Below are positions 60,483-62,612 of a stretch of 64,000 bases of DNA, piece after piece (positions within the stretch are counted from its first letter, which is position 1; each line of letters begins with the position of its first letter). Below the pieces are notes generated by a model. It ran no database searches. It saw only the letters and a program-made list of their open reading frames with translations, and was not told the DNA's origin. Source of the DNA: Dehalococcoidia bacterium (lineage in GTDB: Bacteria; Chloroflexota; Dehalococcoidia; Bin125). The translations under genes and the position numbers were made by a program. Where the stretch lies: contig JAJDXE010000015.1 in NCBI GenBank assembly GCA_022825265.1, positions 6,468 to 70,467 on the forward strand. The letters are read 5' to 3'.

Positions 60483-62612
60483 CTACACCGACAGCGGTTC
60501 GTCGAATACGGCTTGTAGCTCTGTCGCGGTGTGGACGGGGGCTGAGCAGGCGAACGCCTGGCAGACGTAGGCGGTCGGTCGGCCGTCTTGTTGCGACTTG
60601 TCGGCGAGCTGGGGGACGAGGGTGTCGTCGGTCGAGCGCTGCATGACGACCATCGGACGCGGCTCGCCCGACCAGAGGTCGCGGCGCATCTGCTGGAGTT
60701 CCGGGTCATCCGCCGGTCCGACGAGCGCGACCGAGCGGTGATCAGTCAGCCAATCCTCGACCGAGACGAAGAGGCCGAGCATGGTCGGCGCCTTGCTCAG
60801 GTAGGCGGAGAAGGTGGTGCGCATCGCCTCGATCAGATCGGCGTAGCGGCCGTCTGCGGTGAGCGCGTACATGCGGGCGAGGGCGCGGGCGGCGAGCGCG
60901 TTGCCGCTGGGTGTTGCACCGTCCTGGGTTGGTTTGCGCTGTGCGATCAGTTGCTCGCCGTCGCGGCCAACGGTGAAGAATCCGCCACCTTCGTGGTCCC
61001 AGAAGCGCTCGATCATGGCGTCGATCATTGATCGCGCCTCGGTGTACCAGGACTCGTCGCCGGTCGATTCGTAGAGCGAGATCATCCCGTCAGCGACGGC
61101 GCCGTAGTCCTCGACAAAGGCCTCGACCGAGGCCCGTCCGGCGGAGTGGATGCGCAACAGGTTGCCCTCGGCATCGCCGCTACTGGGGCGCATGTGGTCG
61201 AGGATGAAACGGGCGGCTCGCTCGGCGGCGTCGATGAAGCGAGGTTCTTCCAGCACTGCTCCGGCTTTGGCCAACGCGTCGATCGCCATGCCGTTCCAGG
61301 CGGCGATGATCTTGGTGTCGGTGGCCGGAGGAATCCGCGTGGTGCGGTGTTCGAGGAGCGTTTGGCGGCTTCGTTCGAGCGAGGACTCGACATCGGCGAG
61401 GGCGAGATTGAGCCAGCGAGCGACGTCCTCGGGCGACTGGGCGGCGAGCAGGATCGAGTTGCCCTCCCAGTTGCCGCCCACGTCGACGCCCCAGCGGCGG
61501 CAGGCGATCTCGGCGTCCTGTTCGTCGAGCAGCTCGTGCAGTTCGTCGCGGGTCCAGACGAAGTACTTGCCTTCGACGCCTTCGGAGTCGGCGTCGGTCG
61601 AGGCGTAGAAGGCGCCGTCCGGAGTCTGCAGACCGTCGAGGAGGTAGTCGGCAGTCTGGCGGGCGATTTGGGTGAACAGGGAGTCTCTCCCCCCCTCTGC
61701 CTTCGGCATCTCCCCCCCGCTGGGGGGGAGAGAAGATTGCGAATCGGCCAAACGCTGTGCGTCGAGGTAGAGCGGAATGAGCAGGGCGTTGTCGTAGAGC
61801 ATCTTCTCGAAGTGCGGGACCAGCCAGATCTCGTCCACCGCATAGCGATGGAAGCCGCCGGCGAGCTGGTCGTAGATGCCGCCTTCGGCCATCTTGCGCA
61901 GTGAGTCGGCGAGGTGGCGGCGGGCGTCGTTGCGATTGCCGGCCGCCGGGTCGAGCGCTTGCTGGACGAGCAGCTGGAGATAGAAGGGCTGCGGGAACTT
62001 GGGGGCGCCGCCGAAGCCTCCGTGGGTTCGGTCGGCGGCCTGGAGGAGCGCGGTAGCGGCTCGGGAGCGTATCTGTGCGGGCGACTCGGTCAGGTCCTCG
62101 CCGGCCAATTCGACTCGCAAGTTGAGGTGTTTGGTGAGTTCCGTCGCCTGTTGTTCGACCTGGTCGCGTTGCTCGCGGAAGGCTCGGGTGACGCCCTGGA
62201 GGACGTCGGTCCAGCCGGGCATGCCGGTTCGTCGCTGGGGCGGGAAGTAGGTGCCGCCGAAGAACGGCCGGCCGTCGGGGGTGCAGAAGACGTTGAGCGG
62301 CCAGCCGCCGTGACCGTGCAGCATTTGCTGGGCGTCCATGTAGATTTCGTCGACGTCGGGTCGTTCCTCGCGGTCGACCTTGATGCTGACGACGAGATCG
62401 TTCTGCAGGGCGGCGATCTCTTCGTCCTCGAAGGATTCGCGCTCCATCACGTGGCACCAGTGGCAGGCGGCGTAGCCGACGCTGACCAGGACCGGCTTGT
62501 CCTCGGCGCGGGCGCGAGCCCAGGCTTCCTCGCCCCAGGGGAACCAGTCCACGGGGTTGTTGGCGTGTTGGAGGAGATAGGGAGAGGTTTCGGCGGCAAG
62601 TCGATTTGGCAT
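60483..62612 (-). CDS. thioredoxin domain-containing protein, DUF255/YyaL family (thioredoxin plus six-hairpin glycosidase-like domain)
   Basis: N-terminal [25 protein letters not shown]...[11 protein letters not shown], the hallmark of this family. It contains a roughly 19-aa in-frame insertion encoded by a palindromic repeat. Confidence 0.9.
61681..61740. repeat. intragenic, in-frame copy of the GC-rich palindromic repeat (perfect 9-bp stem CTCCCCCCC-GCT-GGGGGGGAG)
   Basis: Lies inside CDS 60483-62612 and is translated as ...[19 protein letters not shown].... Confidence 0.6.

Follow-up and report, generated by a model that had tools for sequence, protein, structure and literature searches.

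Can a GC-rich palindromic repeat lie among the codons of a conserved enzyme without destroying the gene? This question was raised by a gene of the YyaL/DUF255 family in a stretch of 64,000 nucleotides (nt) from a Dehalococcoidia bacterium (GenBank assembly GCA_022825265.1, contig JAJDXE010000015.1, positions 6,468 to 70,467 of the forward strand), which is referred to here as the window. An original prediction, made from the letters of the window, had placed a repeat of the repetitive extragenic palindromic (REP) type in frame inside this gene. The string that it quoted was located at 61681-61735, and the minus-strand reading of that string matches the open reading frame (ORF). From the analyses described below, we consider it highly probable that a copy of a dispersed repeat was inserted in frame and is tolerated by the enzyme as a loop. 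Coordinates of the features are collected in Table 1.

Architecture of the inserted element

On the coding strand the element reads CTCTCCCCCCC-AGC-GGGGGGGAGA-TGCC-GAA-GGCA-GAGGGGGGGAGAG. Including its usual flanks (ATCT... and ...ACTCC) it occupies approximately 61680-61737, and its length is ~45-58 nt depending on where the boundaries are drawn, with a GC content above 75%. The plus strand carries CTCCCCCCC (61710-61718) and GGGGGGGAG (61722-61730) with GCT between them. Hairpin 1 had been described as a perfect stem of 9 base pairs (bp) closed by a 3-nt loop; the perfect pairing and the loop were found as described, and the stem is in fact 10 bp, formed by TCTCCCCCCC at 61709-61718 and GGGGGGGAGA at 61722-61731. 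The exact 9-mer of this hairpin has no further occurrence in the 64-kb window. Hairpin 2 is the most variable part among members of the family. The third segment, GGGGGGGAGAG on the coding strand, also complements the C-rich arm perfectly, and AGAGGGGGGG (61689-61698), which overlaps it, is a mirror image of the purine arm. Three homopolymer runs of seven (C7/G7/G7) are contained within 45 nt.

Folding gave two adjacent hairpins, with energies of −34.8 kcal/mol for RNA and −18 kcal/mol for DNA. The fold z-scores of the YyaL element are modest (RNA −1.7, DNA −2.5), and across the copies they are weak, from −0.7 to −2.9, because shuffled runs of C and G also pair; the argument for a family therefore rests on profile and pattern statistics. 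Direct reading of the sequence revealed no stop codon in any of the six frames of the element. In the sense orientation that it has in YyaL, it is translated into a Gly/Pro/Ser/Glu-rich peptide of 15 amino acids (aa).

Membership in a dispersed repeat family

Copies were sought with the pattern CTCCCCCN{2,10}GGGGGAGN{8,24}GAGGGGG, which gave three matches in the window, including 61691-61730 in YyaL, versus none in 100 dinucleotide-preserving shuffles. Because this pattern had been written with the YyaL copy in view, an independent profile test was made. The nhmmer profile was built from an anchored alignment of 11 intergenic copies from other Chloroflexota genomes, and contained no copy from the window or from a YyaL gene. 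Its top match in the window was 61690-61736 on the minus strand (E=4.6e-11, 38.7 bits, model positions 3-51). The YyaL copy has the complete series of C-rich arm, loop, purine arm, TG, small hairpin, C(A/G) and GAGGGGG, and its non-repetitive GAGATGCCGAAGGCAGAG core is identical in L118, L071 and L077. The YyaL segment is a member of a dispersed CTCCCCC/GGGGGAG two-hairpin repeat of this Chloroflexota lineage, in agreement with the proposal that it belongs with the intergenic hairpins.

Two intergenic copies in the window are clean. They read CTCTCCCCC-GCGCAGC-GGGGGGAGA-TGTCCC-GTA-GGGACA-GAGGGGG (25906-25952) and CCTCCCCC-TCT-GGGGGAGG-TGCCCC-GAA-GGGGCG-GAGGGGG (36967-37006). The degenerate inverted copy that follows the second of these is located directly after the stop of a convergent NIPSNAP gene (37090-37764, minus strand), and the segment at 48174-48237 may also belong to the family. 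Note that the internal hairpin of this last segment resembles a nested hairpin found in the inserts of two YyaL homologs (P0045 and P0006, see below). Further Chloroflexota copies were recovered at L071, L077, L099, L118, L207, L208 and L211.

No Rfam family matched the window, and Rfam gave no meaningful match over the copies in L003, L016, L027 and L118. A peptide search with a 57-aa concatenate of three variants returned two weak matches; note that matches this short cannot reach E≤10 in a database of 5.8 billion sequences. A literature search with the peptide and DNA strings of the repeat found nothing relevant.

Comparison with orthologous genes

YyaL alleles with the insert are designated “filled” and those without it “empty”; P numbers denote YyaL homologs, 120 of which were examined. 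Protein searches returned hundreds of close orthologs from Chloroflexota/Dehalococcoidia metagenome-assembled genomes (MAGs), with a modal length of 690 aa. A block of ~15 residues is present in only about 14 of the 120 relatives (P0001-P0009, P0045, P0048, P0058, P0081 and P0100), and it is absent from more distant orthologs (57-73% identity) and from the solved Brucella homolog 7TKV, as expected from the earlier statement that YyaL homologs normally have no insert at this place. In the alignment, empty alleles read LDAYRMADDPADAELFSRIA at the site, the modal 690-aa ortholog having LDAYRMADDPADAELF; these 690-aa alleles contradict the notion that orthologs generally carry an unrelated segment of equal length there. 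Alignment of the window protein with P0010 showed a 15-aa indel (45 nt) at residues 291-305 and a separate 4-aa gap at residue 479. The difference between 709 and 690 aa is thus made up of 15 aa here and 4 aa elsewhere, and the indel at this site is not the ~19 aa that had been anticipated.

At the DNA level, eight additional filled orthologs and three empty ones were compared, which share one gene neighbourhood and come from independent assemblies, namely from ENA (KELL22, ROBB21, AGAR17 and TARA), from JGI, and from long-read MAGs of 3.1 and 3.5 Mb. Filled alleles read ...TCT YCT CTC CCC CCC (AGC/TCT) GGG GGG GAG ATG CCG AAG GCA GAG GGG GGG..., with a G-run of 7 or 8 depending on the allele; empty alleles read GAT GAC CCG ACC GAC GCG CAG at the same place. 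No frameshifted allele was found among the 120 homologs, all recovered alleles being in frame, and no target-site duplication flanks any filled allele compared at the DNA level.

Placement of the insert in the protein

YyaL proteins consist of an N-terminal Thioredox_DsbH domain with a CxxC-type motif and a C-terminal (alpha/alpha)6 domain. The 709-aa ORF matched Thioredox_DsbH (PF03190) in Pfam with E=9e-76 and the Brucella homolog with E=5e-116. In the alignment, the CHWCH motif (C50-H-W-C53-H) and more than 200 invariant columns are all kept in the insert-bearing protein, and the earlier judgement that the gene remains intact was upheld by this. An AlphaFold2 model was computed from a 38-sequence alignment (mean predicted local distance difference test score, pLDDT, of 80; predicted template modelling score, pTM, of 0.83). 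It superimposes on 7tkv with template modelling (TM) scores of 0.77/0.84, and its C-terminal part resembles (alpha/alpha)6 epimerases by structure match. Residues 293-309 have pLDDT values below 50 and are located between helices 271-290 and 309-328, so that the placement of the insert between two helices was borne out by the model. The insert is predicted to be a disordered helix-connecting loop of the (alpha/alpha)6 barrel domain.

In the gene neighbourhood, a MIP aquaporin gene is located upstream of YyaL, and downstream of it are genes for glyoxalase and PNPOx. Beside YyaL, the window has two adjacent genes of the glyoxalase/VOC family (59407-60224), which are mutual paralogs (repeat family D20).

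Origin and spread of the filled allele

The explanation that we prefer is as follows. A short dispersed REP-like palindromic repeat of ~45-58 nt, composed of a C-rich arm, a purine arm, a variable small hairpin and a second G-run, would normally reside between genes in this soil Dehalococcoidia lineage, just past stop codons. In the sense orientation, one copy would have entered the codons of a loop that joins two helices in the (alpha/alpha)6 domain of YyaL. With a net gain of 45 nt (15 codons) and no stop in any frame, the reading frame would have survived, and the element would be translated as a disordered surface loop, rich in Gly, Pro, Ser and Glu, that the enzyme tolerates. The filled allele would then have spread across lineages by short-tract homologous recombination, and later events at the same spot would have produced a nested hairpin (P0004/P0006/P0045) and a second copy in another frame (P0081). 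Because the element has no stop codon and its net length is a multiple of three, its survival in the gene is sufficiently explained. The hairpin arms carry mismatches without compensation in P0007, P0008 and P0058 and are largely degenerate in P0045, and the peptide drifts along with them. From this decay in some lineages we infer that the insert is tolerated and selectively near-neutral, without sign of recruitment.

In a neighbour-joining tree calculated with the loop region left out, filled alleles are scattered. Over the whole gene, three filled alleles are closest to empty ones: P0058 to P0075 (92.5% identity), P0008 to P0031 (94.2%) and P0009 to P0060 (92.5%). In 100-column windows near the insert, P0058, P0048 and P0008 are closest to filled alleles, and DNA identity between P0058 and its sister P0075 falls to 56-80% only across ~200 alignment columns at the site. 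All filled alleles, and no empty ones, share the residues x-P/S-Q/K-S before the insert and D-S-L-F after it; because of these shared flanks (xPQS...DSLF), the filled allele probably had a single origin. Parts of the flanks (ATCT..., ...(A/G)CTCC) recur beside intergenic copies and may belong to the element itself. A single insertion followed by short-tract recombination between lineages is in our estimation somewhat the better account of this distribution; independent, repeated insertion at a hot spot is the lesser yet still substantial candidate. Secondary events have clearly occurred at the same loop after insertion. An extra hairpin is nested within hairpin 2 in P0004, P0006 and P0045 (e.g. 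GCC CGC CCC CGG CCC GAA CGG GGG GCA), and P0081 has a second copy of the repeat, read in another frame (16 aa), beside a degenerate copy.

Several observations weigh against the insertion of a tolerated repeat copy as set out above. Neither a transposase nor a target-site duplication nor a clean empty-site junction was found, and the flanks of the loop differ between filled and empty alleles, leaving the boundaries of the insertion uncertain by ~6 nt on each side. The insert has too few sites for a ratio of nonsynonymous to synonymous substitution (dN/dS), and the peptide has changed rather little from one filled allele to another, which could reflect selection, or merely youth or gene conversion. 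The main difficulty for a single origin is P0009: its flank (AFRL, GAGTCT) is still the lineage-specific one that is also found in the empty sister P0060, and one common origin therefore needs a very short conversion tract in this case.

Alternative explanations

The original prediction had gone on to call the insert domesticated, meaning here that the repeat peptide was recruited for a function that selection on the protein maintains, for instance as a localisation signal, a surface for interactions or a flexible lid. Consistent with this, the peptide is similar across filled alleles, which are 83-100% identical overall, and the same reading frame (SPLxGE..EGG) recurs for in-frame copies in other genes and phyla. 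However, unchanged DNA alone would give such conservation of the peptide, the loop is predicted to be disordered, and the loop is missing from 7TKV, from every more distant ortholog and from most close relatives. The peptide has moreover drifted in P0058 (SAGDMPKAEEE), P0045 and P0008, where the hairpins decay without compensation, and P0081 reads its copy in another frame. No evidence for a gained function of the insert was found, and we regard domestication as improbable. A role of the nucleic acid inside the gene was considered in two forms, namely phase variation through the C7/G7/G7 runs, or an RNA structure that acts in ribosome pausing, transcription attenuation or mRNA processing. Such a role would suit the three runs of seven in 45 nt, the variation of the G-run between 7 and 8 among alleles, the stable RNA hairpins (−34.8 kcal/mol), and the location of intergenic copies 7-13 nt past stops, which recalls terminator or stabiliser elements of the REP type. 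Yet all alleles are in frame, with no frameshift among the 120 homologs, and for slippage to be efficient, runs of seven are short. The arms have decayed in some lineages, the T-run of an intrinsic terminator is missing, and copies in a wider sample (see below) show no orientation bias with respect to upstream genes (44 versus 60). We consider this role a minor alternative and improbable, slightly more so than domestication.

It might also be supposed that a low-complexity Gly/Pro loop grew in place by slippage and resembles the intergenic repeats only by coincidence. The composition is indeed simple, and shuffled versions fold nearly as well (z=−1.7). Against this, the profile of foreign intergenic copies matches the insert from end to end (positions 3-51), with the GAGATGCCGAAGGCAGAG core included; with E=4.6e-11 for that match, coincidence is effectively ruled out and its probability is very small. 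A chimeric join at the repeat during assembly or binning has nothing specific in its favour beyond the fact that repeats can misassemble metagenomes. The same in-frame insert was found at the same codon position in at least nine independent assemblies or samples, with synteny kept on both sides, and among them are long-read contigs of 3.1 and 3.5 Mb; an artefact is ruled out by these, and we give it a negligible chance.

Comparison with known repeat systems

The principle of in-frame palindromic insertion is already known, and the YyaL case is a new example in a known class. [quoted passage not shown] In the excerpts of these two sources that concern them, RPEs are ~100-150 bp, AT-rich, encode 30-50 aa and are confined to Rickettsia (PMC10969869, PMC3733652). 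As portrayed in the same excerpts, they are like the YyaL element in being dispersed intergenic palindromes that also occur in frame in unrelated housekeeping genes whose products stay functional, and in being translated into a conserved peptide at a place tolerated by the fold (PMC10969869, PMC3733652). The YyaL element differs in its length (~45-58 nt), its GC content (>75%), its 15-aa peptide, and its occurrence in Chloroflexota, with look-alikes in many phyla. An intergenic repeat that is in frame at a permissive site of a conserved and intact gene is nonetheless what was found in YyaL, which places the case with the RPE type as a functional class and not as a sequence family; a relationship in sequence to RPEs is not expected.

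REPs, BIMEs and REPINs are imperfect GC-rich palindromes of 20-40 nt that mostly lie just past the ends of ORFs or separate convergent genes, in many cases as inverted pairs, and the YyaL element resembles these (PMC3733652). Intragenic REPs in flexible loops have been reported (PMC3733652). The window copies located 7 and 13 nt past the ClpS and M20 peptidase stops have the location typical of REPs. Neither the YyaL copy nor 13 Chloroflexota copies have the tag of the GTAG and CGTC superfamilies of REPs in their flanks, and the YyaL element differs further from REPs in having two hairpins and a mirrored purine run instead of a single palindrome. With MITEs such as QMITE1 of Coxiella, ERIC and those of Anabaena, it shares the property of a non-autonomous repeat that adds peptides to ORFs (PMC5896051, PMC10969869). 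A MITE measures 70-300 bp, has inverted repeats of 15-30 bp at its ends and is accompanied by a target-site duplication (PMC5896051, PMC10969869). The “MITE-type” label that had been offered for the YyaL element was dropped, the element being ~49-58 nt (~50 nt in round figures) and having neither 15-30 bp terminal inverted repeats nor a target-site duplication.

This clean case of a DNA repeat, selfish or structural, within a conserved enzyme whose gene was not destroyed is polymorphic among close relatives, some alleles being filled and others empty, and it comes from an uncultured soil lineage, outside the classical Rickettsia setting. Because filled and empty alleles coexist, the cost or benefit of the insert is directly measurable. 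Cases of this kind show how new surface loops of proteins originate, and for annotators they are a warning that a low-complexity Gly/Pro insert may consist of repeat DNA.

Similar repeats in other bacteria

A pattern scan of 185,579 species genomes yielded at least 120 loci (L002-L121). The matches listed include many Rhizobiales, Sphingomonas, Caulobacter, Dehalococcoidia, Acidimicrobiia, Planctomycetota, Turneriella and others, with Sphingomonadales, Caulobacterales, Chloroflexota, Actinomycetota and Leptospirae among the higher groups; the Dehalococcoidia matches listed include the genomes that encode P0009 and P0024. The free spacer contains a perfect stem of at least 4 bp in 59% of 161 listed matches, versus 9.5% of shuffled spacers. 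Among the matches listed there are 59 different sequences for hairpin 2, nearly all framed by (A/G)TG...C(A/G), as well as a second class without hairpin 2 (…GGGGGAGAGGGTTAGGGTGAGGGGG). Inverted pairs 40-120 nt apart are frequent among the matches listed (e.g. L077, L003 and L016), as with REPINs. When the window copies and those of L002-L121 were taken together (164 copies), 87 had the end of an ORF (200 codons or more) no farther than 100 nt away. From the clean pair of window copies a sense orientation relative to the upstream gene had been suspected; this was rejected with the 164 copies, 44 being on the same strand and 60 on the opposite strand.

In the same 164 copies the base beside each of the three segments co-varies (T/A/A in 60, C/G/G in 48, T/A/T in 28 and G/C/T in 7), from which it follows that the third segment is a mirror image of the purine arm. 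As a lead taken from sequence, such a mirrored purine run may allow folding into one or the other of two hairpins that exclude each other, or into an intramolecular purine-motif triplex (A.A-T, G.G-C). Note that the co-variation is a lead and not evidence, because the variants follow taxonomic lineages.

To select in-frame host genes, we used ORFs that span a copy, with Pfam domains spanning or flanking the copy, among the matches listed. Six such genes are given in Table 1. With these, the YyaL case is one instance of a general property of the repeat architecture. That the copies make up one widespread, apparently unnamed repeat class, composed of (N)CTCCCCC, GGGGGAG(N'), a free hairpin and a mirror (N')GAGGGGG, and share a common mechanism, is a tentative proposal that we think rather doubtful. 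If they did form one mobile or structurally selected family and were not convergent look-alikes, they would supply protein loops, in the manner of RPEs, to a large part of the bacterial domain. The wider family seen here suggests that the phenomenon is much commoner than the literature implies.

Table 1. Positions of the YyaL insert, of other copies of the repeat, and of related loci
Feature	Sequence	Position	Strand	Remarks
Host gene YyaL/DUF255	window	60483..62612	minus	709 aa, intact ORF
Repeat element core	window	61685..61733	minus	two hairpins and second G-run; 16 aa read
Hairpin 1	window	61709..61731	minus	perfect 10-bp stem TCTCCCCCCC/GGGGGGGAGA, 3-nt loop
Hairpin 2	window	61698..61708	minus	TGCC-GAA-GGCA (plus strand: TGCC-TTC-GGCA), 4-bp stem
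Third segment	window	61685..61695	minus	further CTCTCCCCCCC, second G-run
Intergenic copy	window	25905..25955	plus	nhmmer E=8.9e-8; 7 nt past ClpS stop (25560-25898)
Intergenic copy	window	36967..37007	plus	nhmmer E=3.5e-3; 13 nt past M20 peptidase stop (35638-36954)
Degenerate inverted copy	window	37039..37078	minus	loose pattern only; nhmmer not significant
Possible distant relative	window	48174..48237	plus	longer internal hairpins (CCTCCCCC ... GGAGGGGG); nhmmer only E=7.3
Secondary event, P0081	L206	10880-11010		
Secondary event, P0004	L205	10881-10946		
Secondary event, P0045	L207			
Example copy	L003	4505-4545		
Example copy	L016	2149-2194		
Example copy	L027	6488-6528		
Example copy	L118	4650-4689		
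In-frame copy in RND pump	L031	5524-5558		ACR_tran 14-615 in one stretch; Proteobacteria MAG
In-frame copy in molybdopterin-binding (xanthine-dehydrogenase-like) subunit	L055	460-503		MoCoBD_2 17-296; Turneriella
Copy in Ser/Thr kinase activation segment	L096	1138-1174		between DFG and APE; Verrucomicrobiia
Two inverted copies, GluQ-RS-like gene	L093	5098-5140 and 566-612		Sphingomonas
In-frame copy in LigA	L040			Planctomycetota
In-frame copy in OSBS-like gene	L066	1104-1145		Thermoanaerobaculia

Minor observations

In two relatives (L208 9103-9146 and L211 9081-9122), a copy of the repeat overlaps the 3' end of the MIP aquaporin gene. The product of the gene with the overlapping copy is 257 or 262 aa, versus 255 aa, and the repeat therefore supplies C-terminal codons and the stop region. 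Downstream of many of the Rhizobiales copies (L010, L019, L039, L070, L072, L091 and L120), ...cGTAGrg... is found at a distance of 6-8 nt, and in frame 1 these copies read ISPLVGEMSGRTEGG. The GTAG may link this branch to the GTAG-tagged REPs.

Elsewhere in the window, five paralogous units of ~470-660 nt that have diverged from each other are arrayed in tandem at 11001-13256 (families D4, D9 and D13), and at 38795-41596 a gene-sized unit of ~940 nt is present three times in tandem, the copies having diverged to 71-81% identity (D1, D2, D5 and D16). The region 34001-36000 has a local GC content of 0.58, versus ~0.65 elsewhere. A 68-nt direct repeat (family D12) is present at 12055-12122, 48648-48715 and 48874-48941, in places that look intergenic; it is rich in CCTGAACG-like units and ends in GCACGATCTCCAGCAATACAC.

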